IMG/VR virus record: IMGVR_UViG_3300040801_004386
Coordinates: 1-40,441 of that record
Reading direction: 5' to 3' (one strand)
DNA: 40,441 nt
Source: a virus
Position 1 is the first letter of the stretch. The number at the start of each line of letters is the position of its first letter. Position numbers and translations under genes: made by a program. The notes under the pieces were generated by a model, which made no database searches, was not told the origin of the DNA, and was given only the letters and a program-made list of their open reading frames with translations. Below, in pieces: positions 19,110 to 40,441 of the stretch.

Positions 19110-19171
19110 CTTCTCTTTCTTTCTGAGAACACATGCTATGCTAATGGATGGAAACAAACCAAGGAGATCAT

Positions 19172-19678
19172 ATGAAAATTTTTAAAGTTCTAGTGTTACT
19201 CAGTTTTATACCATTACATCCATCAGAATCGCAAGAAATTACACGCACTCGCTCAGGATCTGTAATCATAGACTTAGAGCCAGGATCTCCGCTAGCAATC
19301 AACTATGCACGATCTAAACATCCTATTGCTTATAAATTAGTGCATAAAGCAATGAATGGAAATTCCAATGCCTTTGTTATAAAAACGATCGGCAAGAGCC
19401 TTGATAAAGATAGAGATGGTAAACTCTATAAAGAACTACGCCAAACACGTAAATTATTGCAAGAAATTGCCGAACCTAAGAAAGAAAAAAACAAAAAATT
19501 AGACCAAACCCTGATAAGTGAATACATCATCAAGGAACTTTCTGAGAATATAGTTAGAAAAAAGGGCGAAGCTCAATATCATAAGAAACAGAAAGTTGTA
19601 ATAGCTATCGCAGGGGTTATTGGAACTATAGTAACAAGCGTCTCAGCGGCTGTAGCTGCTTATTTCTCTCATCAATAA
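19172..19678 (+). CDS. Opposite-strand cassette: secreted/membrane protein with N-terminal signal peptide and C-terminal TM anchor (168 aa)
   Basis: AAGGAG SD before ATG 19172. MKIFKVLVLLSFIPLHPSES at the N-terminus and VVIAIAGVIGTIVTSVSAAVAAYF at the C-terminus. Confidence 0.6.
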   Translation: MKIFKVLVLLSFIPLHPSESQEITRTRSGSVIIDLEPGSPLAINYARSKHPIAYKLVHKAMNGNSNAFVIKTIGKSLDKDRDGKLYKELRQTRKLLQEIAEPKKEKNKKLDQTLISEYIIKELSENIVRKKGEAQYHKKQKVVIAIAGVIGTIVTSVSAAVAAYFSHQ

Positions 19679-20601: not shown

Positions 20602-20680
20602 TCTCCCGATGATGCGTTAAAATAAATTATCTTCATTGAAAACAAAGTGATACTTTACATTCTCATACGGTATACTTGTT

Positions 20681-20794
20681 TTATAGGGAATCGGTTTTAT
20701 ATCGATTCCTTTTTTTCTTGGAACGTTTTCCTGGCCATAAAAGACGAGCTGCTATAGCAGTTGCCTTATTTTTGGGCCTAACTGCTTGTGGCAT
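20681..20794 (-). CDS. Possible 37-aa basic peptide
   Basis: AGAGGTG SD upstream of ATG 20794. Short, and overlaps the plus-strand terminator hairpin. Confidence 0.3.
   Translation of the reverse strand: MPQAVRPKNKATAIAARLLWPGKRSKKKRNRYKTDSL
20687..20716 (+). terminator. Rho-independent terminator (GGAATCG-9 nt-CGATTCC + T7)
   Basis: Stem and T-run seen directly downstream of the 20356-20601 gene. Confidence 0.6.
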
Positions 20795-20817
20795 ACCACA
20801 CCTCTTTTAGCTTTATA

Positions 20818-23850: not shown

Positions 23851-23916
23851 TGTTAACAAGTATAGGCCTATATAAGTAATTAGTCAATGAATAGTGTTTC
23901 TAACAAAAGGAAATCA

Positions 23917-24573
23917 ATGAAAAAGTTTCATTGTATAGGCTTACTATCTTTAATTGCAATGCAGGCAATTGCACTAGAGATACCTGAAAAATCAATAGTG
24001 GCTCAGAAGGGAACAAAAGTATCATTTAAAGACGGAGATTTCTTCGTAGAACGAGATGGAATCAAACATGAAACACAAATGTGCTTTAACGCTAAAGAGC
24101 TCAACAACATGGACAGAGCTAAATTGTTAGCGTTTCTTAAAAACGGCTACATCCAAGTAAAACCACACGGTAGTAGTTACTGCCTCGATACACATCAACG
24201 CCTCAACGGTGGATGGTGGATATCAGGATTCGTTGGATATTGGACAGTCAAGTTAGGAGCAGGCGCAGTTGTTAGCCTTGGTATCAATAGCCTTATAAGT
24301 AAAATGCGAGGAGGTCGCAGCAGAAGAGCAACGTCAGCTTTTAGCGATGCTACTTCATTTGCAGAAGCAGCATCATCTGGAATAAGCGGAATAGCATCGT
24401 ATACAGCTTCAAATGTCATAGAAAATACAATAAACAAGATCCCTGGGGCACAAAGTGCAAGCGAGTCAGCCGCACTAGTATCAGTTACAAGCGGTGCAGG
24501 CGCGATGGCCGCTGTTGAAAGTGCAGCCCTATGGGTAGGAGCTGTTTTAACCGCATGTCCATACATACCGTAA
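23917..24573 (+). CDS. Secreted protein (218 aa) with signal peptide and Gly/Ala/Ser-rich hydrophobic C-terminal half
   Basis: MKKFHCIGLLSLIAMQAIA signal. C-terminal WWISGFVGYWTVKLGAGAVVSLGINSLI and AGAMAAVESAALWVGAVLTA segments. Confidence 0.65.
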   Translation: MKKFHCIGLLSLIAMQAIALEIPEKSIVAQKGTKVSFKDGDFFVERDGIKHETQMCFNAKELNNMDRAKLLAFLKNGYIQVKPHGSSYCLDTHQRLNGGWWISGFVGYWTVKLGAGAVVSLGINSLISKMRGGRSRRATSAFSDATSFAEAASSGISGIASYTASNVIENTINKIPGAQSASESAALVSVTSGAGAMAAVESAALWVGAVLTACPYIP

Positions 24574-28488: not shown

Positions 28489-29046
28489 TTATCTTTTAAT
28501 CCCAAAATCTTTTTTACGAATTTTACACATCTTACCTGTAAAACCTTTATCGTAAAAAACTATACCTTCAATATCATGAGATGGATCTGATAAATATTCT
28601 TTTATTGCATCAAATGAGACGTCATCTATATGCAAAATATTGCGTCCATGGGGAACCAACACATGGCTATCAAACTTCTCACGGTTTCCATTTATTTTTG
28701 GCCCACAAAGCTCATAAGTCCAACTTTCTTTACTTTCTAATGCATCAAAAGCCTCGAAAGCCCACCGATCAGCCTTCTTACTTCTATCACAAGGAACCCA
28801 GTGTGGATAATGTCCCGTTGTTGCATCTGGATCCTGGCAAGGAATTGCCCCATCTGGAAGGTTTCTACCTGGTTTTAGATCGAAACGTTTATAAAGCTCT
28901 CCATTTATTATTGCCACCGCAGTTCCATCATATTTTCTGGTGGCAAAGAATCCTTCCAAAATCCATTTGTTTTCTTCGCGCAATTTATTGATTACCCGAC
29001 CAAGATTATCAGGGTCTTTTTCAAATAACGTCTTAATCTTCCTCAT
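28489..29046 (-). CDS. Minimal ATP-dependent nucleic-acid ligase-like nucleotidyltransferase (185 aa)
   Basis: Motif I KYDG (ATRKYDGTAV), motif IV-like EGIVF, motif V-like KIRKKDFG. ATG 29046 with AGAGGG SD. Confidence 0.6.
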   Translation of the reverse strand: MRKIKTLFEKDPDNLGRVINKLREENKWILEGFFATRKYDGTAVAIINGELYKRFDLKPGRNLPDGAIPCQDPDATTGHYPHWVPCDRSKKADRWAFEAFDALESKESWTYELCGPKINGNREKFDSHVLVPHGRNILHIDDVSFDAIKEYLSDPSHDIEGIVFYDKGFTGKMCKIRKKDFGIKR

Positions 29047-29476
29047 CGGCCCTCTTTCTAATAAAATTAAGCATACACTCCTGATCTTCAGCGATTGGCA
29101 AAGAATCAGAAAACAACGAACTTTCAAGATTTATAGATACGGCTTCATAATGTTCGGCTAGCACAGAATCTACCATATACTTCAATTCAAGTAGAGATTC
29201 AATATCGTCAGATTCCTCCTGATAGAAGTATTCTACGTTTACCCTAGCTCCCGAATAGAACCCTTCAACTTCTTTTATTCTATAACCGTGCTTTGGATCC
29301 CACATTGCGATCTCAGAGTGAAACCGTGCTATTTCCTGTGGCTTTGAGTTTCTTACAAGAACAAGAAGGTCAACACCTCGTCTAGGAATAGCAATCTCAG
29401 CTTGGCGCCACACAATATCTATAAACTTAATGCCATGTAAAGTCCTAAACTTTATTTTGTCTTTAGTCTTTCTCAT
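29033..29476 (-). CDS. Hypothetical 147-aa protein
   Basis: ORF overlapping its neighbours by 14 nt on both sides. Confidence 0.5.
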   Translation of the reverse strand: MRKTKDKIKFRTLHGIKFIDIVWRQAEIAIPRRGVDLLVLVRNSKPQEIARFHSEIAMWDPKHGYRIKEVEGFYSGARVNVEYFYQEESDDIESLLELKYMVDSVLAEHYEAVSINLESSLFSDSLPIAEDQECMLNFIRKRADEED

Positions 29477-33360: not shown

Positions 33361-33549
33361 TCATTGTCTAGATTCGTTTTTTACATATGCTTCTAATTTT
33401 TTCCATGTATCTACTCGTACCTTCTGGCCACGTACAAACTTTTTTAGTGTTAAGTGGTTGATATTGATCAAACTTGCTAATTCAAGCATCCCCAGTGGAT
33501 GTATTTCCATGTAATTGAGCAGCTCTTTGCGTATTTCATCTTGCGACAT
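33361..33549 (-). CDS. Cro/CI-type helix-turn-helix regulator (62 aa)
   Basis: LELASLININHLTLKKFVRGQK is a helix-turn-helix. It is the first gene of the leftward arm at the divergent control region. Confidence 0.65.
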   Translation of the reverse strand: MSQDEIRKELLNYMEIHPLGMLELASLININHLTLKKFVRGQKVRVDTWKKLEAYVKNESRQ

Positions 33550-33609
33550 TGCGACCTCATATGGTTGTATAAATTAATTATAAATTATTGTTGACTTTGT
33601 TATATTTAG

Positions 33610-33644
33610 TGTTATCATTATAACAGTTAATGATTAAAACACAA
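33610..33644 (-). promoter_or_regulatory. Leftward promoter TTGTGT-16 nt-TATAAT overlapping the palindrome TGTTATCATTATAACA (operator candidate)
   Basis: -10 at 33622-33617 and -35 at 33644-33639 on the minus strand. Palindrome at 33610-33625. A plus-strand TTGACT lies at 33591-33596. Confidence 0.5.
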
Positions 33645-33658
33645 GCAGAAGGATTAAA

Positions 33659-34189
33659 ATGAAAGAAACATACTGCAAACTTGAAATGCTGGCGTTAGTT
33701 CGTGCATATTCATGCTTACATGAACTAACCGATGATGATGAGTGCTATCTCATAGAAATGATGCAAATATTGCCATATAACGATGATCATATTTCCATTG
33801 AAAATGCTTGGAAATATTTTGATTATATTGAAACAGATCATGAATTACATCAAGATGGATGCGGATTTGTGTTATTGGAAGAAGATAAACCATATTTAGA
33901 TTGTAATTTTGAACACTGTGATTGTAACGCCCCTGAATTAATTGATTCATTCTTTAAGTTCATATCAGACGAATTAAAAGAGTGTCATATCGCAGATTTG
34001 TGTGCAACGGCAAATACTCGCACACGTTTTACAGTTCGTGAACTCATTTTACATGCACGTACCATGTATAATGCAGATACTCTCAATAAAGATGAAGCGC
34101 GATTAATTTGCAACTTTTTAGTAGGTGCACATTCAAAAAGATTCCTCGATGAATTGCGGAAAGAATTTAACTTAAAGGTTTCAGAATGA
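33659..34189 (+). CDS. First gene of the rightward arm: strongly acidic, Cys/His-rich 176-aa protein
   Basis: About 37 D/E versus about 18 K/R, counted by eye. 10 Cys. Confidence 0.6.
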   Translation: MKETYCKLEMLALVRAYSCLHELTDDDECYLIEMMQILPYNDDHISIENAWKYFDYIETDHELHQDGCGFVLLEEDKPYLDCNFEHCDCNAPELIDSFFKFISDELKECHIADLCATANTRTRFTVRELILHARTMYNADTLNKDEARLICNFLVGAHSKRFLDELRKEFNLKVSE

Positions 34190-34452
34190 TTACTGTACAA
34201 GCACTTTTATTTACAGCCATTATCGGCAATTTCATACTCACAATACTCCTTTATTACTACTCTCAGAAAAATGCTATCGATACGTGGGACAATATTATGA
34301 ATATGACGCAGAAGCACCAAAAAGAAATGGCAAAGAAACTGAACATTTCAACTGAAGGACTTCGAACTATTCAAAATAGAGTAATGGACATCCAAAATAC
34401 CTTCGACTCGATTTGCTCAATGGCAAAAAAGAAGGAAGAAGATGGAAAATAA
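34186..34452 (+). CDS. Membrane-anchored coiled-coil protein P1 (88 aa), paralog family member
   Basis: N-terminal TM LLFTAIIGNFILTILLYYY, helical C-terminus with a KKKEE tail. ATGA overlap upstream and 11-nt overlap downstream. Confidence 0.65.
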   Translation: MITVQALLFTAIIGNFILTILLYYYSQKNAIDTWDNIMNMTQKHQKEMAKKLNISTEGLRTIQNRVMDIQNTFDSICSMAKKKEEDGK

Positions 34453-34843
34453 TTTTAATTTATTAAAAACAAGTATTGAGAATTTCAGAAAAACACGTGA
34501 TTCATTCTCGGATACTATAGGTTCCATCGAAAAAACTCTTGCCAAAGCAGGAATTAATATAGAATTTTCTTTAGATTTTACTGATGAAACCGGACATTTA
34601 ATGAAGTTGAGCTGGTGCCCTTACAAGCAACCTGATCAAAAAAGGAGATCAAAATTCCGTTTGCTGTTTACATATTTTGATATAGAAGATGGTGAAATAA
34701 CAAAACCCCTCCAGGAACATCCACTTGAAGTTAGGTTGAAAACATTCCAACACCTAGCAACATTTGTTGCTTCGTTTTCGCACTTTATTGATAAAAAAAC
34801 GAAAAAGATTGCAGAACTAACACAAGTAAAGGAAGATAGATGA
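34442..34843 (+). CDS. Hypothetical 133-aa protein coupled to P1
   Basis: ORF overlapping both neighbours. Confidence 0.55.
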   Translation: MENNFNLLKTSIENFRKTRDSFSDTIGSIEKTLAKAGINIEFSLDFTDETGHLMKLSWCPYKQPDQKRRSKFRLLFTYFDIEDGEITKPLQEHPLEVRLKTFQHLATFVASFSHFIDKKTKKIAELTQVKEDR

Positions 34844-35106
34844 CAACAACCACATTATTACTCGCTTTTGGGGTTATCTCCAATTTTATAACAATAGCAC
34901 TTGTATATTATTACCTCGATAAGGAAAGCTTGAGTGTTCTTGTTGAAGCAAGTAAAAACGTTGTTGAATATAAATTGCATCGAATGGACAAAGACAAAGC
35001 AGTCAGTGAATCAATTTGCAAGATAGAGCAAGAAGTGCGCGATCTTAAAAAGAAAATAAAAACAATATCTAAGCGTGAAAAAAAGAAAGAAGGAAATGAA
35101 CAATAA
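34840..35106 (+). CDS. Membrane-anchored coiled-coil protein P2 (88 aa), paralog family member
   Basis: LLLAFGVISNFITIALVYYY TM, helical C-terminus with a KREKKKEG tail. Overlaps the ERF gene start. Confidence 0.65.
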   Translation: MTTTTLLLAFGVISNFITIALVYYYLDKESLSVLVEASKNVVEYKLHRMDKDKAVSESICKIEQEVRDLKKKIKTISKREKKKEGNEQ

Positions 35107-35704
35107 ATTACTTGAACTTGTAAAAGAAGGAACTCTCCCGTGGGGAGATTTTAAGAAAATGGTATGTGCGTACAATGATGCAATGACACAATGCCAAAAT
35201 CAAATTGAACCTATAAAAAAAGATAGTTCTGCAAGATATAAATACGCTTCATATGAAGTAATCAGAGAAAAGACAGCAAAGATAATTGCGTCGTGTGGCT
35301 TGGCAATTGAGCAGTGGCATGTAAAACGCGATGGTGAATATTCACTGGTAACCTTGATAAAACATAAAGATGGTTACGAAGAAGAAAAGACCTCGCCTAT
35401 TGTTATATCAGACATACGTACAAACCGAGATAATCAACCGCTGCTTACCGTTGAACAGCAGCTTGGATGTGCAATCACATATACCAAAAGATATGTGTAT
35501 AACACTATTTTTGGCATAGCAACCTATGAAGATGATGTCGATGGTCAAATAAATCAAAGTTCTGAACACAAGCAGTCTGCTGATGCCCTTAAATGCCCAA
35601 AATGTAACGGGTCAATGAAACTTCGACATAGCGCAAAAACAGGTCAAGACTTCTGGGGCTGTACAGCATACCCAAATTGTAATGGCGTCATGAAAAAGGA
35701 TTAA
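35075..35704 (+). CDS. erf: ERF-family single-strand annealing protein fused to a C-terminal topoisomerase-type C4 zinc ribbon (start GTG 35075 or ATG 35093)
   Basis: SARYKYASYEVIREKTAKIIASCGLAIEQW...LGCAITYTKRYVYNTIFGIATYEDDVDG is the ERF core. KCPKCNGSMKLRHSAKTGQDFWGCTAYPNCNG is the zinc ribbon. Confidence 0.7.
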   Translation: MKKRKKEMNNKLLELVKEGTLPWGDFKKMVCAYNDAMTQCQNQIEPIKKDSSARYKYASYEVIREKTAKIIASCGLAIEQWHVKRDGEYSLVTLIKHKDGYEEEKTSPIVISDIRTNRDNQPLLTVEQQLGCAITYTKRYVYNTIFGIATYEDDVDGQINQSSEHKQSADALKCPKCNGSMKLRHSAKTGQDFWGCTAYPNCNGVMKKD

Positions 35705-35708
35705 ATGA
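35682..35708 (+). repeat. Boundary direct repeat copy 1 (ATGGCGTCATGAAAAAGG + ATTAAATGA)
   Basis: 18-nt perfect match plus an imperfect tail with 37965-37992. Confidence 0.85.
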
Positions 35709-37930
35709 AACCAAGGGATTATCAACAAGAGGCTATCGATTCGGTAGTCTCTGAATTTAAAAAAAATGATCGTACTACAATAACGATGGCTTGTGGAACG
35801 GGTAAAACGCTCGTTGCAATGTGGATCATGGAAAAAATGAATTCCATGCGAACCATTTTTATTGCACCATCTTTAGCGCTCATAAGTCAAACAATTGAAT
35901 CCTGGTCAAAAGCAACATCATTCAAAAAGGTAAAATTTGCAGCTTTATGCTCAGAAGCGAAGGTCTATGATGATATCGAATTAGATGATTCATTCAAAGG
36001 GACAGTTTGTAAATCAAAAGATGAGCTGATTGAATTTTATAATAACAACAAGAATTATCGATTAATTGTATTTAGCACGTATCAATCTTCAGGATCTATA
36101 GATGCAAGTATTGAATTTGACTTGGCAATATATGATGAAGCTCATAAAACAGCAAATCATAGCGAAAGATGCTTTAGAAAAACTCTATATGATTTCAATG
36201 TATCCTTTCATAAGCGGCTTTTTATGACTGCAACACCTAAATGTTTTATATATGGAAAAGCCCAGGACGATGTTGTCGAATATTCTATGGATAATCAAAA
36301 CATCTATGGAAAGATTTGTTACGTCTTATCATTTGACCAAGCAATAAAACGCAATTTAATCTGTGATTATAAAATTTTAATCTCTATCATTGATCAAAGT
36401 GCACTTAAAAAACAAGAAGATGAATGCAGCTATGTGATGTCGCGTGATGCTCAAATATTATCACTTCTGAAAACATTCAAAAAATATAATATTAAGCGAT
36501 CTGTAACGTTCCATAGAACAATTAGACAAGCAATGCATTTCAGCAGAAAAATGCCTGATACATGCATTAAATCACTACATATAAATGGTCAATTACCATG
36601 TCATAAACGTGATGAAATTATGAATCTTTTTAAAAAAACAGACTATGTGAATATTAGCAATTCGCGATTTCTTACTGAAGGGGTAAATATCCCATCAATT
36701 GACCTTGTTGCCTTTATGACACCAAAAAGAAGCAAGATTGATATTATCCAGGCATGTGGGAGAGCCATGCGAAAATCTCCTGGAAAGTCATTCGGCTACA
36801 TTTTCTTGCCGCTTTTTGTTAATAAAAACGATCTTTCTAATTTAAATAATGTAATCGTTGAATCGCGTTATCTATATGTTTGGAAGATAATAAAGTCACT
36901 TGCTGAATATGACAATTCGCTTAATGAAGAAATTTTAAACAAAAGGATAAAAACAGGCCCTGGACAAAATAGTAGCTCAAAAATCATAATCAACACTGAA
37001 GACCAATCAATAAATATCAAAGATATTGAAAATGCAATCGATGTACATCTTATAAATTCAGTAATTAGTAAGTGGGATCTGCAATATCATAACTATAAAA
37101 ATTTCATAAAAAATTTTGAAAAAGAGCCTTCTGAATACAGCAAAAATACAGATGAAGTATCACTTGCACGTTGGACTCGCGCCTGTCGATATAATTACAA
37201 CGCACAGATTATGCCTAAAGACCAAATTGAAAAACTAAGGGCTATTAATTTTTCTTTCAGTCCTCTCACAGATAAGTGGCATAGCAAATTTGAAGAATTT
37301 AAAAATTCAATTTTGAAGAAGGGTTTTTTGCCGATAACTAATCATGGCAAATCTTTAGAGGATTGGTTTTATATTCAAAGACTAAAAATTAATTCGAATG
37401 CATTGCGTGACAATCGGGCAGCCATGCTAAAAGATTTTATCAAAAAATATGATCCGAAATTGAAAATCTTAAGTATAAAAAAACAAAATGGATGGGATTT
37501 ATTTGTTGCTGACATAGAAGAACATCGTAAAAAGACTGGTTCATATAATTTATACAAACCCAAAAATCCTAAAATCCGTAAGCAAATTGAATATATCCGT
37601 CGCAATAAAGACGCATTAAGCGCTCAGAAGCTAGAATATCTTGAAAAAATCAACTTTGACTTTAGAAACTTTTTACAACAAAAATGGGAGAAAAAATATG
37701 ACGAGATTATGCATTTCCTTGAAACATATAAACAACCCCAGTTAATGAATAGTAAGGCAAAAAATCTTAAAACTTGGCTCGATCGACAAAAATATAGATT
37801 TAAAAATAAAGAACTCGATAAATATCATGCAAAAAAGATATCAGATTTATTAAAACTGATTAAAGGTTTAAACAAACCCCAAAAAATAACGTTATCAGAT
37901 ATTTTTGAAGCCCAATTAAAAGAAAGGTAG
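35705..37930 (+). CDS. SF2 DEAH-box DNA helicase (741 aa) with four C-terminal helicase-associated (HA) repeats
   Basis: Motif I ACGTGKT, II DEAH, III TATP, VI QACGRAMR. C-terminal repeats W..(F/Y)....F........L..W...QR. Confidence 0.8.
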   Translation: MKPRDYQQEAIDSVVSEFKKNDRTTITMACGTGKTLVAMWIMEKMNSMRTIFIAPSLALISQTIESWSKATSFKKVKFAALCSEAKVYDDIELDDSFKGTVCKSKDELIEFYNNNKNYRLIVFSTYQSSGSIDASIEFDLAIYDEAHKTANHSERCFRKTLYDFNVSFHKRLFMTATPKCFIYGKAQDDVVEYSMDNQNIYGKICYVLSFDQAIKRNLICDYKILISIIDQSALKKQEDECSYVMSRDAQILSLLKTFKKYNIKRSVTFHRTIRQAMHFSRKMPDTCIKSLHINGQLPCHKRDEIMNLFKKTDYVNISNSRFLTEGVNIPSIDLVAFMTPKRSKIDIIQACGRAMRKSPGKSFGYIFLPLFVNKNDLSNLNNVIVESRYLYVWKIIKSLAEYDNSLNEEILNKRIKTGPGQNSSSKIIINTEDQSINIKDIENAIDVHLINSVISKWDLQYHNYKNFIKNFEKEPSEYSKNTDEVSLARWTRACRYNYNAQIMPKDQIEKLRAINFSFSPLTDKWHSKFEEFKNSILKKGFLPITNHGKSLEDWFYIQRLKINSNALRDNRAAMLKDFIKKYDPKLKILSIKKQNGWDLFVADIEEHRKKTGSYNLYKPKNPKIRKQIEYIRRNKDALSAQKLEYLEKINFDFRNFLQQKWEKKYDEIMHFLETYKQPQLMNSKAKNLKTWLDRQKYRFKNKELDKYHAKKISDLLKLIKGLNKPQKITLSDIFEAQLKER

Positions 37931-37964
37931 AAATTGGAAAATAATCAAGATCGTAAACGATCGC

Positions 37965-37992
37965 ATGGCGTCATGAAAAAGGGTTAGAATGA
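37965..37992 (+). repeat. Boundary direct repeat copy 2 (ATGGCGTCATGAAAAAGG + GTTAGAATGA)
   Basis: Copy of the last codons and stop-start junction of the ERF-Zn gene, placed after the helicase stop. Confidence 0.85.
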
Positions 37993-38231
37993 TAACGCTT
38001 GGAATGTTTTTGCTGATACTATGTATTTCAAATTTCATTATGACAACTTTATTGGCATTTAAGACAATTGATCATATATGGGATGCAGTAGGATATGCTA
38101 TAAAACATCAAAAAAACATTTCGAAATATCTAACAAGAGCTATACAACGAAATTCAAGTTGTCTTAAGGTTATTGAAAATAAAATTAGAGATTTTGAAAT
38201 TGCTAAAAAAAACAAAGAGAATGGGGCATAA
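37989..38231 (+). CDS. Membrane-anchored coiled-coil protein P3 (80 aa), paralog family member
   Basis: FLLILCISNFIMTTLLAF TM and IENKIRDFEIAKKNKE C-terminus. 9 nt upstream of the second ERF gene. Confidence 0.65.
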   Translation: MITLGMFLLILCISNFIMTTLLAFKTIDHIWDAVGYAIKHQKNISKYLTRAIQRNSSCLKVIENKIRDFEIAKKNKENGA

Positions 38232-38240
38232 GGATTAACA

Positions 38241-38984
38241 ATGGATGTAACGATAGAGACACTTTTTGAATCATACAAAACCGTTAACACGCTTATTGAG
38301 CAAGAAGTTATAAGAAGAACAGAGATCAACTCTAAGCCACGACATCAATCATCTTCGATAGATAAGATTGCTGAAGCCTTGTCTGCCGCTCAGGGCAAAT
38401 ATAAGCCGGTAGAGTTTAATCGTAAAACTGAGATGTGGTCAAATGAATATTCTGACTTTGATACACTCATGAAACATGTTCTTCCCATTTTAAGCGAACA
38501 ACAATTAATGTTTACACAAAGAACAGAACATGATGGCGATATATTATATTTACGCAGCATTCTAATGCACTCAAGTGGCCAATGGATATCATCAGTCATT
38601 AGAATAAACCCACCAAAGAACGATATTGAATGTCTCGATTCAATAATTATGGATCAAAAAAGAGACCAAGCAAAGCTTCTCTTGGGTATATCTCTTGAGA
38701 ATGATCCTCGCGATGATGATGGTGAATATGCCATGCGAAACGTACAAGAAGATATCAAAAAGGGAACAAAGGCATCACTTAATAGAAAGCAAGAATCATA
38801 CGAGTCAATCAGTAAAGAACAAGCTGAAGAACTTGAATATGAATTGCAAGGATATGAAGATATTGCAGAAGAAGTTCTTGAGAAGTTCAAGCTCAGACAA
38901 CTTGCTGATATGCCAAAAAGTGTATATCGAACTGCAATAACAAATGTTCGCAAGATCAAGCGGTATCGCCAAGAAGGAAAATAA
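38241..38984 (+). CDS. erf: Second ERF-family single-strand annealing protein (247 aa)
   Basis: IDKIAEALSAAQGKYKPVEFNRK...YSDFDTLMKHVLPILSEQQLMFTQ...LMHSSGQWISS...DPRDDDGE is the ERF pattern. Confidence 0.65.
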   Translation: MDVTIETLFESYKTVNTLIEQEVIRRTEINSKPRHQSSSIDKIAEALSAAQGKYKPVEFNRKTEMWSNEYSDFDTLMKHVLPILSEQQLMFTQRTEHDGDILYLRSILMHSSGQWISSVIRINPPKNDIECLDSIIMDQKRDQAKLLLGISLENDPRDDDGEYAMRNVQEDIKKGTKASLNRKQESYESISKEQAEELEYELQGYEDIAEEVLEKFKLRQLADMPKSVYRTAITNVRKIKRYRQEGK

Positions 38985-39187
38985 TGGAATCACCTGAAGT
39001 TAAAAACCCTACTAAATCTGGCAGTTATATTGTAACTGCACTCGCAGCGACTTGTGGAGGGGAAACTTGCATCATGGAACGAGCTTTCTACGACTGTCAA
39101 ACAAAAAAATGGTCTGCATGTGGAATGTTATCAAGTTTTCCCATAATTAAAATTGTTAAATGGACACCTATAGAAGAAGGAAAATAA
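38984..39187 (+). CDS. Small Cys-containing protein (67 aa), DUF551-like C-terminus (KIVKWTPIEE)
   Basis: TAATG overlap with the upstream gene. Confidence 0.5.
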   Translation: MESPEVKNPTKSGSYIVTALAATCGGETCIMERAFYDCQTKKWSACGMLSSFPIIKIVKWTPIEEGK

Positions 39188-39237
39188 CAACAGTCCTCAT
39201 GTTTCTGCTTGTGAATGAGGTGGTAAAAACACTGCGA

Positions 39238-39266
39238 GCGGTAGACTAACTATCTACCGCTTTTTT
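39238..39266 (+). terminator. Rho-independent terminator of the rightward arm (GCGGTAGA-7 nt-TCTACCGC + T6), at the convergence point
   Basis: Stem and T-run read directly. Confidence 0.7.
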
Positions 39267-39286: not shown

Positions 39287-39505
39287 TCATACGTCTTTTT
39301 TTGACTTTTTTTTTGCTTGAACTTCATCATCAGGATCTGGAGTATCTGGTGAAAGATCAATATCCATGTCCGTCTTTTCCTTTATGACAACTTCAATGAT
39401 CTCTTCTATGTTATTGTCAGTCTTCCATCCTGGAATAAAACGAGATCCAACACCAATCAAACCCAAAGTGATTAAACCCGCATAAATTAGTATCGTCCAA
39501 TCCAT
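39287..39505 (-). CDS. 72-aa single-TM protein with acidic then Lys-rich C-terminus, coupled to the fibre gene (holin-like or fibre accessory)
   Basis: TGATG stop-start overlap with the fibre ORF. AGAAGGAAAG SD. TM WTILIYAGLITLGLIGVG. Confidence 0.55.
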   Translation of the reverse strand: MDWTILIYAGLITLGLIGVGSRFIPGWKTDNNIEEIIEVVIKEKTDMDIDLSPDTPDPDDEVQAKKKSKKDV

Positions 39506-40441
39506 CACTTTCCTTCTAATTTCTCAATACGCTCATTTAATTTGATAATCTCATTTAACATTAATGGAATCAAATCCATATATTTGACGGTTTCTGGTTG
39601 TCCACTCTCTGGATCATAAACCACAAGGCGCCGTAGTGTGCGTTCAACTTCCTCAGCTATCAAGCCATATTGTTTTGATTTTGTTTTGTCAGACCTGTAA
39701 TTAAACGTTACTGGGCGTAAATCATAAATACGACCCGATTCTTCAGTCTTAAGACTTTCTATGTTTTCTTTGTATCGTATCGATGATGAAACCGTTCCTA
39801 ATTGATGTGAACTGTCAATCAACACTGGAATTGCATCAGCTACACCTGTGGTTATGCCACGTATGCCTGCTATAAAACAGCGGTTCTGGGTGTAAACTGG
39901 TATTACCCCTGGATTAGGCGATGCAGTTCCTGTTTGATTTCCAATTCTTATCGTATTTGCCTCAGTGCCTACACCAAAATTACCGATACATATATTTTGT
40001 GCCTCGTTTGCTGTCCAATACCACCCACTATGTGGGCCAATTGCTATATTCCCCTCAACCTTGTTTGCGGCCGTACCAACGACATTGTGCATATTTTCAT
40101 AGCCGAGACCTGTGTTGTACCACCCAACTTCGATATTTTCAGCTCCCCTAAATCCTACGATTGTATTTTGGCCACCAAGGCTAGGAGCGCCAGGGTCGTC
40201 CGTTATGCTGGCAAGAACATTCAGCCCTATTGCTACGTTATTTATAGCACCGACTGTTGTGCTTAACGCCAAATTTCCGATCGCAATATTTTGATCGGAA
40301 ACCCCGTAACCAGAAACATACGAGGCAAGCGCTTCAGTTCCAATTGCAATTGTATTAACCACATCAGTTGCTGATCCTAATGCGTTTGTCCCTATTGCTA
40401 TGGGAGAAGTACCATTTACCAGTGAATCAAGAGCATTAAAC
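39505..40441 (-). CDS. Tail fibre protein, C-terminal part (continues from 1169..1) with peptidase-S74 intramolecular chaperone domain at 39505-39789
   Basis: CFIAGI...SSHQLGTVSSSIRYKENI...YGLIAEEVE...VKYMDLIPLMLNEIIKLNERIEKLE is the canonical autoproteolytic chaperone signature. The track start at 40362 is an internal GTG. Confidence 0.85.
   Translation of the reverse strand, partial: FNALDSLVNGTSPIAIGTNALGSATDVVNTIAIGTEALASYVSGYGVSDQNIAIGNLALSTTVGAINNVAIGLNVLASITDDPGAPSLGGQNTIVGFRGAENIEVGWYNTGLGYENMHNVVGTAANKVEGNIAIGPHSGWYWTANEAQNICIGNFGVGTEANTIRIGNQTGTASPNPGVIPVYTQNRCFIAGIRGITTGVADAIPVLIDSSHQLGTVSSSIRYKENIESLKTEESGRIYDLRPVTFNYRSDKTKSKQYGLIAEEVERTLRRLVVYDPESGQPETVKYMDLIPLMLNEIIKLNERIEKLEGK
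40325..40441. repeat. Terminal overlap copy B (identical to 1-117)
   Basis: Read base by base. Confidence 0.95.

Follow-up and report, generated by a model that had tools for sequence, protein, structure and literature searches.

The phi29 protein p16.7, of ~130 aa, has an N-terminal transmembrane (TM) segment, a coiled coil and a C-terminal DNA-binding domain. With phi29 p1, it provides the precedent for small early membrane proteins that anchor phage DNA transactions: both combine a helical oligomerisation region with a cytoplasmic portion acting on ssDNA or on proteins of DNA transactions (PMC4974454, PMC11476376). The described neighbors of SSAP genes are exonuclease, SSB, Gam-like, and Gp157-like genes, and the genes usually found 5' of erf in Firmicutes phages are of the Sipho_Gp157 or Mu Gam-like type (PMC8093625). 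In phage P22 the order is kil-arf-erf, where Arf (47 aa), encoded directly 5' of erf with a 4-nt ATGA overlap, is the one described "small partner gene" of erf.

Here we analyze a 40,441-nucleotide stretch of viral DNA (IMG/VR record IMGVR_UViG_3300040801_004386), hereafter the window. It encodes 3 anciently duplicated single-pass membrane proteins, P1–P3, within one early operon that also holds a helicase gene flanked by 2 Pfam-valid ERF genes.

Results and discussion

Layout of the operon

All ORF coordinates given in an initial annotation of the window were confirmed, and the features are as follows:

33361-33549, minus strand: small HTH-like gene, divergent from the plus-strand operon promoter
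33591..33618, plus strand: putative sigma-70-like promoter (TTGACT-16-TATCAT with TG); 10/12 matches in a consensus scan, consensus match only
33659..34189, plus strand: 176-aa Cys-rich protein, operon gene 1; its stop overlaps the P1 start (ATGA)
34186..34452, plus strand: P1, 88 aa; N-terminal TM helix IIGNFILTILLYYY, 2 more helices, K/E tail
34442..34843, plus strand: 133-aa protein; long helix, 4-stranded sheet, long helix (AF2)
34840..35106, plus strand: P2, 88 aa; TM helix VISNFITIALVYYY, clearest heptad helix, K/E tail with the ERF1 SD
35096..35704, plus strand: ERF1; ERF annealase domain and C-terminal topoisomerase-I-type C4 zinc ribbon; alternative GTG start at 35075
35705..37930, plus strand: SF2 helicase; ResIII/DEAD, Helicase_C, and HA domains; abuts ERF1
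37989..38231, plus strand: P3, 80 aa; TM helix CISNFIMTTLLAF, helical C-terminal part; RBS AAAGGG before ATG 37989
38241..38984, plus strand: ERF2, diverged ERF-family protein; ERF fold signature and C-terminal tail retained
38984..39187, plus strand: 67-aa Cys-containing protein, final gene of the operon; TAATG overlap with ERF2
39236..39262, plus strand: terminator-like hairpin and T-run, between convergent operons

The promoter at 33591..33618 is the candidate start of the plus-strand early/recombination operon. The 176-aa protein has no match in Pfam, PHROG, NCBIfam, or PADLOC and no relatives in the clade set surveyed below, and the 67-aa protein has no family match in Pfam or PHROG searches.

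Each P gene had been described as coupled or abutted to the next gene, and the distances hold: P1 overlaps the 133-aa gene by 11 nt, P2 overlaps ERF1 by 11 nt if translation starts at ATG 35096 (good SD) or by 32 nt if it starts at GTG 35075, and P3 is separated from ERF2 by a 9-nt gap. However, tight junctions run throughout the operon—i.e. ATGA overlaps 5' of P1 and P2 and TAATG 3' of ERF2—so the coupling does not single out P and the gene that follows it. The codons of the P1 and P2 K/E tails also encode the SD of the next gene (133-aa gene and ERF1, respectively).

P1–P3 are old paralogs with an N-terminal TM helix

The proposed paralogy of P1, P2, and P3 is borne out. BLASTP links P1 with P3 (E = 6e-10) and with P2 (E = 7e-9), while similarity between P2 and P3 is not detected by this method. 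Smith–Waterman comparisons of the P pairs give z = 12.8, 12.0, and 7.9 (no shuffle out of 300 scores as high), and z = 9.4, 11.4, and 5.0 when shuffles preserve blocks. Only the P reading frame shows the similarity, synonymous sites have reached saturation (pS 0.71–0.89; pN 0.40–0.51), and different codons encode over half of the identical residues, which together indicate, from the sequences, that P1–P3 are old duplicates under protein-level selection.

The N-terminal TM helix claimed for each protein is supported by Kyte-Doolittle 19-residue maxima of 2.08–2.28 (residues 4–24) and by an AF2 model from the 3-sequence alignment, which has helices at residues 2–25, 30–52, and 56–85 with modest confidence (pLDDT 67). 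No charged residue precedes the TM helix, which, with its buried Asn, is the best-conserved part of P and is followed by an aromatic cluster. The I(G/S)NFI motif and the aromatic cluster after it agree with the initial annotation, as does the Lys/Glu tail on each P, whereas the C-terminal motif IxN(R/K)(V/I)xD fits P1 and P3 and only loosely P2, which reads IEQEVRDL. The coiled-coil claim stands in part: a pattern of ~3 heptads occupies equivalent positions in P1–P3, and its score is reached or exceeded by 0/300 shuffles for P2 and 4/300 for P3, but by 11/300 for P1, which is marginal, and the AF2 model is helical at low confidence.

No domain match, DNA-binding domains included, was found for P1–P3 in Pfam, PHROG, and other profile searches. 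Homologs of P outside this contig are undetectable among 1.8 billion representative proteins, and among all PDB sequences the P profile scores best with designed coiled coils (E = 0.037) and does not match p16.7. The long P3 start (ATG 37989) has the AAAGGG RBS and a conserved N-terminus; in the public annotation P3 is called as a shortened form of 63 aa.

Set against the described systems, P resembles phi29 p16.7 and p1 as a small early membrane-anchored phage protein with a helical region and a predicted cytoplasmic part. It differs in size (80–88 aa), in having no DNA-binding domain, and in its association with an ERF annealase rather than a protein-primed replisome. P2 likewise lies 5' of an erf gene with an overlap, as does P22 Arf, but Arf is acidic and soluble, has no hydrophobic segment (max KD19 0.21), and shows no similarity to P. 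Kil of lambda and P22 is, like P, a small early protein beside recombination genes, although P22 Kil lacks a TM segment and is unrelated to P in sequence. The Sipho_Gp157/Gam-like proteins share with P their position and a helical (in P putatively coiled-coil) character, but are soluble, ~150–200 aa long, and without a TM segment; neither P1–P3 nor the 133-aa protein has a Pfam or PHROG match to them. As the initial annotation had supposed, a membrane-anchored 5' neighbor is not among the described SSAP neighbors (PMC8093625), and the pairing of a small TM protein with an ERF1-type gene has not been described before.

Two ERF genes and a 133-aa protein

Both ERF genes exceed the Pfam ERF cut-off (PF04404, cut-off 25), ERF1 with 66.1 bits (E = 4.6e-18) and ERF2 with 32.4 bits, a family match that they share with P22 Erf and SECphi27 Gp77 (PDB 9y6u). 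Both also match PHROG 2324 "Erf-like ssDNA annealing protein" (1e-23 and 6.9e-21, respectively), and ERF2 aligns to Gp77 with E = 2e-10, or 9e-19 when its profile is used. The zinc ribbon ascribed to ERF1 scores 36.7 bits against PF01396, above the cut-off, and this Topo-I-type ribbon stands in place of the usual C-terminal tail of other ERFs. Its core motif, GCAITYTKRY, fits G-x-x-I-(T/S)-Y-x-(K/R)-R-Y, and an ortholog in the related phage L095 aligns over the full length (29% identity, E = 6e-29).

By contrast, ERF2 lacks the canonical (T/S)Y-x-(K/R)R-Y of other ERFs: it reads DSIIMDQKRDQ where the ERF consensus has GSxITYxRRY, and it alone is without Y/R/Y among 10 aligned ERFs. The core motif is lost in 13/13 ERF2-type proteins that co-occur with ERF1. 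ERF2 loses the canonical motif only where ERF1 is present; the motif is kept in 0/13 ERF2-type proteins with ERF1 present versus 27/43. Having 2 ERFs is indeed unusual, as 0/75 ordinary ERF loci have another ERF gene less than 3 kb away, and in nearly all phage records a single place matches. Homologs of the helicase show 33–39% identity and lie on contigs of ~40 kb.

P1 had been paired with the 133-aa protein encoded downstream. This protein is not an ERF, its AF2 model (pTM 0.56) finds no fold match in structure comparison, and it has no Pfam or PHROG match. As an ERF candidate it was rejected with an hhalign probability of 0.5%. Its family is small and occurs in 5/56 related phages, each time within the recombination operon, and in 2 of those 5 directly 5' of an ERF2-type gene; the pairing of P1 with the 133-aa protein as a link to recombination is unsupported.

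A small TM protein repeatedly precedes ERF1-type genes within a phage clade

We surveyed a clade of ~56 related phages of ~35–41 kb, reached via the helicase and ERF2 and comprising 56 non-redundant loci. An ORF with an N-terminal TM segment lies directly 5' of 6/13 ERF1-type genes, compared with 51/765 other genes (6.7%; OR 12, P = 1.4e-4; P = 8.7e-4 with the window removed), although these and the following P-values overstate independence because the loci are phylogenetically related (e.g. L145 and L166). When six-frame ORFs are considered, 8/13 ERF1-type genes have such a neighbor, including 5/5 zinc-ribbon ERF1s. Using an Asn hallmark in the TM segment, defined post hoc with the data already seen, the counts are 6/12 versus 13/765 (P = 8e-8), or 5/10 versus 5/389 (P = 7e-7) with relatives collapsed and the window removed. 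The TM-core Asn itself occurs in 10/12 ERF-upstream TM proteins and in 19/98 other N-terminal-TM ORFs (P = 1.9e-5). Within the clade, small proteins with an N-terminal TM segment and a buried Asn are therefore strongly enriched directly 5' of the ERF1-type gene.

The association is not a general feature of ERF loci: none of 8 annotated ERF phages has a small TM partner, and in IMG/VR ERF loci one occurs at background level (2/63). The survey of gene neighborhoods proposed in the initial annotation thus favors the pairing at ERF1-type genes of this clade and not elsewhere. Its notion of one dedicated partner per annealase did not survive, as P1 precedes a non-ERF gene and TM ORFs are only weakly associated with ERF2-type genes (a priori P = 0.09; P = 0.28 with relatives collapsed and the window removed). 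Support for the P3–ERF2 pairing is weak.

In the TM proteins of the clade, the N-terminal TM segment has an Asn in its core, a helical/heptad region follows, and the C-terminal part ranges from 30 to 263 aa. Spacing to ERF1 ranges from −11 to +33 nt, while the flanks of the pair vary (helicase before or after, SSB, ERF2, and other small genes); the pair persists within the clade as the surrounding gene order changes, so the TM gene and ERF1 move as a unit. Lysine and arginine residues in the TM flanks number 4 on the N-terminal and 20 on the C-terminal side, with C exceeding N in 9/10 family members. The positional counterpart in L092, whose TM segment, helical region, and HTH domains closely match the p16.7 layout, scores 25.1 bits against the homeodomain-like HTH family PF13384 (cut-off 24.6) and has a weaker second HTH. 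On this domain content it is a membrane-anchored DNA-binding protein, and its C-terminus must be cytoplasmic. In L166, 2 tandem paralogs precede ERF1, so duplication recurs, whereas the L095 counterpart is a 30-aa peptide that is essentially a bare TM helix.

A TM neighbor is missing at 5/13 ERF1-type genes, and L098, L100, and L112 keep both ERFs without a P-like gene, so the ERFs do not need one. The P HMM finds nothing significant among 5,160 six-frame ORFs of the relatives, and with a best pairwise z of 4.0 homology between P1–P3 and the TM proteins of these phages is not established.

Possible roles of the P proteins

The interpretation put forward in the initial annotation is, overall, partly supported. 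The reading we favor, tentatively and by analogy with phi29 p16.7, is that P may be a cytoplasm-facing membrane anchor or organizer of the annealase module. P proteins would insert into the inner membrane with N-out/C-in topology and oligomerise by way of the heptad helix and the Asn within the membrane, and their cytoplasmic part would anchor or organize the annealase module, so that the ERF ring and/or its ssDNA substrate might be concentrated at the membrane surface, as with phi29 p16.7 and p1. In the window the P gene would have been triplicated, with P2 serving the canonical annealase ERF1, P3 now preceding the diverged ERF2, and P1 preceding a presumed accessory protein of 133 aa in the same operon. 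Several observations speak against an anchor. The highly variable C-termini and the 30-aa L095 peptide point to the TM helix, not a cytoplasmic docking domain, as the functional element; P1–P3 carry no DNA-binding domain and P1 precedes a non-ERF protein; and adjacency of an unrelated small early gene has a known case in P22, where kil lies beside arf-erf.

Two other roles, host-directed and anti-defence, are serious rivals. The first, which we consider unlikely, is that P is a host-directed early membrane protein with no mechanistic tie to recombination, so that its position beside ERF would reflect a hot spot for insertions or an inherited gene order in the operon. The target of the TM helix with its Asn would then be a protein of the host inner membrane (e.g. 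a divisome component, a transporter, or a receptor), and parallels would be Kil-type division inhibitors, superinfection-exclusion proteins, and SPO1 gp56, a small N-terminally anchored membrane protein. This fits the TM helix being the best-conserved part of P, the reduction to a TM peptide in L095, and the existence of phages with both ERFs and no P-like gene. The extreme sequence turnover, with variable C-termini and with copy number and presence differing among relatives, is what genes for host interaction typically show; both P1 and L099_83 lie 5' of non-ERF genes, and P22 kil adjoins arf-erf though it is not a recombination factor. We know of no toxicity or division phenotype for P. Against a host target, the pair stays adjacent despite rearranged flanks, the enrichment is specific to ERF1-type genes (OR 12–58), the predicted N-out/C-in topology places the variable part in the cytoplasm, and the HTH domains of the L092 counterpart suit a DNA-related role better than one at the host envelope.

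More doubtful is a counter-defence gene kept beside an ERF "liability", whether by hiding the ERF ring at the membrane from cytoplasmic sensors or by blocking a membrane-embedded abortive-infection effector via Asn-mediated helix–helix association. The case for it is circumstantial. To our knowledge, no anti-defence protein has the P architecture, which counts against this role, as does the lack of a PADLOC or other family match for P. In its favor, the ERF homolog matched by ERF2 (E = 2e-10), SECphi27 Gp77, forms 24-mer rings and directly triggers the RAZR abortive-infection RNase (PMC13017515), and phage recombinases are targets of several unrelated defence systems (PMC11846896). The accessory, patchy, and fast-evolving distribution also suits an arms race, and the gene is tied to the canonical annealase in each genome.

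It is improbable that the P ORFs are translational-coupling leaders that bring ribosomes to the downstream gene, with a peptide of little importance. The SDs of the 133-aa gene and ERF1 do lie inside the purine-rich P1 and P2 tails, with 11-nt overlaps in both cases, and overlaps of −4 to −11 nt recur in L097, L160, and L166; but protein conservation is restricted to frame 0 with saturated synonymous sites, a specific Asn TM motif is conserved across paralogs and clade, and all operon genes are equally tightly packed.

That P1–P3 are misplaced lysis proteins (i-spanin, holin, or antiholin) is largely refuted and scarcely credible: like i-spanins (Rz, DUF2570) they start with a TM helix, after which comes a putative coiled coil, P1 reaches 17.2 bits against DUF2570, and a lysis cassette was sought in the window and not identified, but that score is below the cut-off of 26.6 with none for P2 and P3, no endolysin, holin, or lipoprotein partner adjoins them, and whereas i-spanins are type II proteins (N-in/C-out) of lysis cassettes with an o-spanin partner, P1–P3 have no K/R before the TM helix, are predicted by the positive-inside rule to have a cytoplasmic C-terminus, and occur as 3 copies in an early operon with recombination genes.

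Organization of the recombination operon

The 40,441-bp metagenomic contig, which is the entire window, derives from a very divergent tailed phage with genes for a major head protein, portal, large terminase, RusA, SSB, and a DUF3987-type primase-like protein, as well as a tail fibre carrying an S74 chaperone domain. The closest portals, at ~23% identity, come from podophages of Gram-negative hosts. DNA-level searches of deposited phages found no relative, searches of GTDB genomes for prophage copies that could identify the host found none, and endolysin, holin, and spanin genes were not found by PHROGs or Pfam. A single plus-strand operon, bounded by a sigma-70-like promoter (33591) and a terminator-like hairpin (39236), contains the following genes in order:

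+, 176-aa protein
34186-34452, +, P1, small putative membrane-anchored protein
34442-34843, +, 133-aa protein
34840-35106, +, P2, P1-like protein
35096-35704, +, ERF1, ERF annealase with a zinc ribbon
+, SF2 helicase
37989-38231, +, P3, P1-like protein
38241-38984, +, ERF2, diverged second ERF-family protein
+, 67-aa protein

As initially annotated, there are two ERF genes, both above the Pfam curated cut-off. The helicase carries HA (helicase-associated) domains and abuts ERF1, the SSB and RusA genes lie on the opposite strand from this operon, and the interval 33659-39187 is without a recognisable exonuclease partner for ERF1 or ERF2. The 176-, 133-, and 67-aa proteins have nothing above threshold in searches of Pfam, PHROGs, NCBIfam, PADLOC, and PDB sequences; a by-eye likeness of the 176-aa protein to Cys-rich 62/92-aa proteins of two related phages (loci L092 and L095) is unsupported (BLASTP E = 2.1).

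The initial annotation viewed each P as the membrane-anchored partner of the gene that follows it, with the two translationally coupled or abutted. The coordinates and overlaps hold: P1 and P2 overlap the next gene by an identical 11 nt (ATGnAAnAATAA), and their K/E tails encode its Shine-Dalgarno. However, all junctions of the operon are equally tight, not just those after the P genes, so coupling is no evidence of a specific P partnership. Near the 3' ends of P1 and P2 (34410-34452 and 35065-35106) lies an in-frame A_AAA_AAG heptamer (GCA AAA AAG and GAA AAA AAG). On reading the sequence, a -1 frameshift there adds only ~13 codons, without fusion to the downstream gene, and nothing favours a +1 shift at the stop, which would join P to the downstream protein.

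P1-P3 are old paralogs with one N-terminal membrane helix

The three small ORFs are related, as originally proposed. BLASTP links P1 with P3 (E = 6e-10) and with P2 (E = 7e-9), and pairwise Smith-Waterman z-scores are 12.8, 12.0, and 7.9, with observed scores matched by 0 of 300 shuffles and still significant under separate shuffling of the hydrophobic block. This similarity is confined to the P frame, synonymous change has reached saturation (pS 0.71-0.89 vs pN 0.40-0.51), and different codons encode more than half of the identical residues; the P genes are thus old duplicates kept by protein-level selection. DNA similarity past the ends of the P ORFs is not convincing.

Each P has one strong hydrophobic segment at residues ~4-24 (KD19 2.1-2.3), with no charge ahead of it, consistent with the N-terminal TM helix originally assigned. 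The AF2 model of P, of modest confidence, has helices at 2-25, 30-52, and 56-85. All three proteins have a short heptad pattern in matching positions; of 300 shuffles each, none scored as high for P2, 4 did so for P3, and 11 for P1. The public JGI call of P3 (37989-38231) is a 63-aa form that starts at an internal ATG and so lacks most of the TM helix; an AAAGGG RBS precedes the upstream ATG, which yields an N-terminus conserved among the paralogs.

Searches with a profile of the three paralogs, covering 5.8 billion protein clusters and, exhaustively by HMMER, 1.84 billion representatives, recovered just this contig, fragments of its phage, and two long coiled-coil proteins. Nothing exceeded threshold in Pfam, PHROGs, NCBIfam, PADLOC, or PDB sequences.

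A membrane-protein gene often precedes ERF1-type annealases in related phages

Single-protein locus scans of IMG/VR with ERF1, the helicase, and ERF2 returned nothing, and the ERF1 homolog search returned ERF1 itself only. Homologs of the helicase (33-39% identity) lie on contigs of ~38-41 kb, in neighbourhoods of the same phage type that again have two ERF genes, an ERF1 type, in which the zinc ribbon is frequent, and an ERF2 type of ~252 aa; the window and L095 ERF1 proteins are 29% identical over their full length. An alignment of ERF2-type proteins retrieved 65 further loci, for a total of 56 non-redundant loci.

The test, set a priori, was whether the same-strand ORF directly upstream encodes a single-pass N-terminal-TM protein. 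Such an ORF precedes 6/13 ERF1-type genes, 6/45 ERF2-type genes, and 51/765 of all other genes, an enrichment that is significant for ERF1 (odds ratio 12, P = 1.4e-4; P = 8.7e-4 with the window removed) and reaches P = 0.09 for ERF2. When six-frame ORFs overlooked by the crude gene caller are added, the ERF1 count rises to 8/13; five ERF1 genes are without a TM neighbour. The flanks of the pair vary by phage, with the helicase upstream or downstream and with SSB, ERF2, or the operon end after ERF1, and the distance from TM gene to ERF1 is -11 to +33 nt throughout.

An Asn in the helix core, frequently within (G/S/F/I)-N-F-I, is found in 10/12 TM proteins upstream of ERF genes vs 19/98 other N-terminal-TM ORFs (P = 1.9e-5). 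With this TM-Asn hallmark, a post hoc criterion, the ERF1 link is 6/12 vs 13/765 (P = 8e-8), and 5/10 vs 5/389 once the window is removed and relatives are collapsed; the ERF2 link is lost under the same treatment (P = 0.28). When six-frame ORFs are counted, all zinc-ribbon ERF1s (5/5) have a TM-Asn gene directly upstream.

Beyond the clade, ERF neighbours in 8 diverse annotated ERF phages have a TM segment in 0/8 cases. Among 80 IMG/VR loci with canonical ERFs, 63 upstream ORFs were assessed and two are P-like, i.e. the 3.1% background, and none of the surveyed loci has a second ERF nearby; a general rule that ERF always has a TM partner is thus rejected. The initial annotation was right that a small membrane-anchored protein accompanies an annealase gene, a pairing previously undescribed. 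The observation is thus upheld and its interpretation partly supported: the pairing is one of gene order, is clade-specific, and is solid for the ERF1 type only.

The class ranges from a bare helix to a protein with HTH domains

Sequence homology between P1-P3 and the TM proteins of the clade is not demonstrable, and a P HMM has no significant match among six-frame ORFs of the relatives; we therefore group them by architecture and position into one class, possibly a single fast-evolving family. As this case shows, architecture and position can place ORFan mini-proteins that escape homology searches. Representative members, by locus of related ~35-41-kb phages, are:

L092, 6867-7658, +, TM protein of 263 aa directly upstream of the zinc-ribbon ERF
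L095, 9206-9298, +, uncalled mini-ORF of 30 aa (MTQLHLFFIMIASNFTIIIIMLTLIYMRIK), 33 nt upstream of the zinc-ribbon ERF
L166, 892-1230 and 1227-1610, -, TM-Asn paralogs in tandem (…ICINFISILYFIG…, …IIFNFIAILYFIW…), 5' of the ERF1-type gene
L099, 12052-12303, +, TM-Asn protein of 83 aa (…TLINAFFIILLWWYNHKLID…)

C-terminal parts range from nothing, in the L095 ORF, up to the L092 protein of 263 aa. The former is close to a bare TM helix with the SNF motif common to P2 and P3, and may be either a working mini-protein or a remnant. In the latter, the N-terminal TM helix (…WLAGNIIFILALLYIILKR) is followed by a helical region and then by HTH domains, one homeodomain-like (PF13384, above the Pfam cut-off) and a second weaker. 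These domains, arranged as in phi29 p16.7, make it a DNA-binding protein with a membrane anchor. Cytoplasmic HTH domains require an N-out/C-in topology, which charge distribution predicts in 9/10 class members. The tandem L166 paralogs indicate that duplication of the TM-Asn class is not unique to the window. The L099 protein matches P2 best in pairwise comparison (z = 4.0); its gene directly follows the helicase, like P3, and is followed by two genes (163 and 151 aa) and then by an ERF2-type gene.

Divergence of the two ERFs and the partners of P1 and P3

The C-terminus of ERF1 is a topoisomerase-I-type C4 zinc ribbon (residues ~165-200; PF01396, 36.7 bits) in place of the usual ERF tail, and the same fusion is found in L092, L095, L145, and L166. 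The motif of ERF1 is canonical (GxxITYxKRY), and ERF2 instead has DSIIMDQKRDQ. The (T/S)Y-x-(K/R)R-Y motif is absent from the ERF2-type protein in 13/13 clade phages with an ERF1-type gene; in sole-ERF phages it is strict in 27/43 ERF2-type proteins and near-intact in most others (P = 3.6e-5). The cases of loss are probably clustered phylogenetically, and may thus reflect one event or a few. Length and sequence are nevertheless conserved among the variant ERF2 proteins (31-45% identity), which points to sub- or neo-functionalisation following the gain of a second ERF. A sub-lineage likely acquired ERF1, often with a TM gene, and the resident ERF2, freed from annealase constraint, then took another role. 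Two-ERF phages, with one canonical copy and one that is motif-less yet conserved, thereby offer a natural case of paralog subfunctionalisation.

Taken literally, the pairing of each P with a recombination gene holds for the window's gene order, but elsewhere only the P2-ERF1 kind is seen again, given that the 133-aa protein is not an ERF and that P3 before ERF2 has few parallels (L113, L119, L134). A third, degenerate ERF, making three P-ERF modules, is rejected for the 133-aa protein (Smith-Waterman z = 0.6 and -0.2; hhalign probability 0.5%). Its reasonably confident AF2 model (helix, 4-stranded sheet, helix) has no fold match. Its small family, always within the recombination operon, occurs in 5/56 clade loci:

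Window, 34442-34843
L122, 5520-5921, directly upstream of the ERF2-type gene
L155, 1615-2016, directly upstream of the ERF2-type gene
L133, 4458-4841
L106, 4826-5305

Duplication of P and ERF as a unit is not supported: ERF1 and ERF2 have no detectable mutual similarity (z = 1.9), and ERF2 is nearer to ERFs of other phages than to ERF1.

Possible roles of the membrane protein

Phage annealases (ERF, Redβ, RecT) drive recombineering and genome mosaicism and also trigger bacterial immunity. Their described partners, i.e. exonucleases, SSB, Gam, Gp157, and Arf, are all soluble, and membrane proteins are absent from the described neighbours of SSAP genes (exonucleases, SSB, Gam-like, and Gp157-like; PMC8093625). 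P22 Arf, the sole described small gene 5' of erf, is acidic and soluble, whereas P is predicted to be membrane-anchored. The finding is best filed under a known theme, the phage recombination module with a small accessory gene; a membrane-anchored accessory that travels with ERF through rearrangements would give annealing a spatial dimension, i.e. where in the cell it occurs and why, and would offer P2 with ERF1 as a concrete pair to test.

We tentatively favour a reading in which the TM protein anchors or organises the annealase module at the membrane. Polar residues in TM helices promote helix association, and class proteins would insert N-out/C-in, oligomerise through the buried Asn, and act on the cytoplasmic face. 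The closest functional precedent is phi29 p16.7, which with p1 holds replication proteins and ssDNA at the membrane (PMC4974454, PMC11476376). The bare-TM member of L095 and the ERF1 genes without a TM neighbour both weigh against a tether. A more specific version is rather doubtful: an Asn-zipper protein would dock the ERF ring, and through it ssDNA recombination intermediates, at the cytoplasmic face of the inner membrane, with three P copies each serving one client (the 133-aa protein, ERF1, and the neo-functionalised ERF2), and the tether might also shield the ring from ring-sensing immune proteins like RAZR. If true, this would be the first membrane-tethered single-strand-annealing machinery.

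Among the alternatives, a host-directed early membrane protein whose adjacency to ERF is historical has a precedent in P22 kil, next to erf, and is unlikely, though less so than the others. A counter-defence function tied to ERF as immune trigger gains plausibility from the RAZR abortive-infection RNase, for which a ring of the ERF family is a direct activator (PMC13017515), and we give it a small chance. That the P genes are leader ORFs is highly improbable, and that they encode lysis proteins even more so.

Other small genes of the window

A 212-aa protein (28489-29127, -) strongly matches PHROG 14301 'RNA ligase' (4.5e-58), a gene uncommon in 40-kb phages. Plus-strand ORFs at 19148-19678, 23887-24573, and 20676-20810 sit inside the minus-strand structural region; two have signal-peptide-like N-termini, and a 44-aa ORF has a lipobox-like LTAC and may be a moron or a lysis-related gene. 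Directly after the tail-fibre gene, a further small N-terminal-TM protein, the fourth in the window and of a family different from P, is encoded (39287-39508, -; 73 aa, MMDWTILIYAGLITLGLIG…). L095 has a 62-aa counterpart in the same place (62% identity), and there the ERF2-type gene comes next on that strand.
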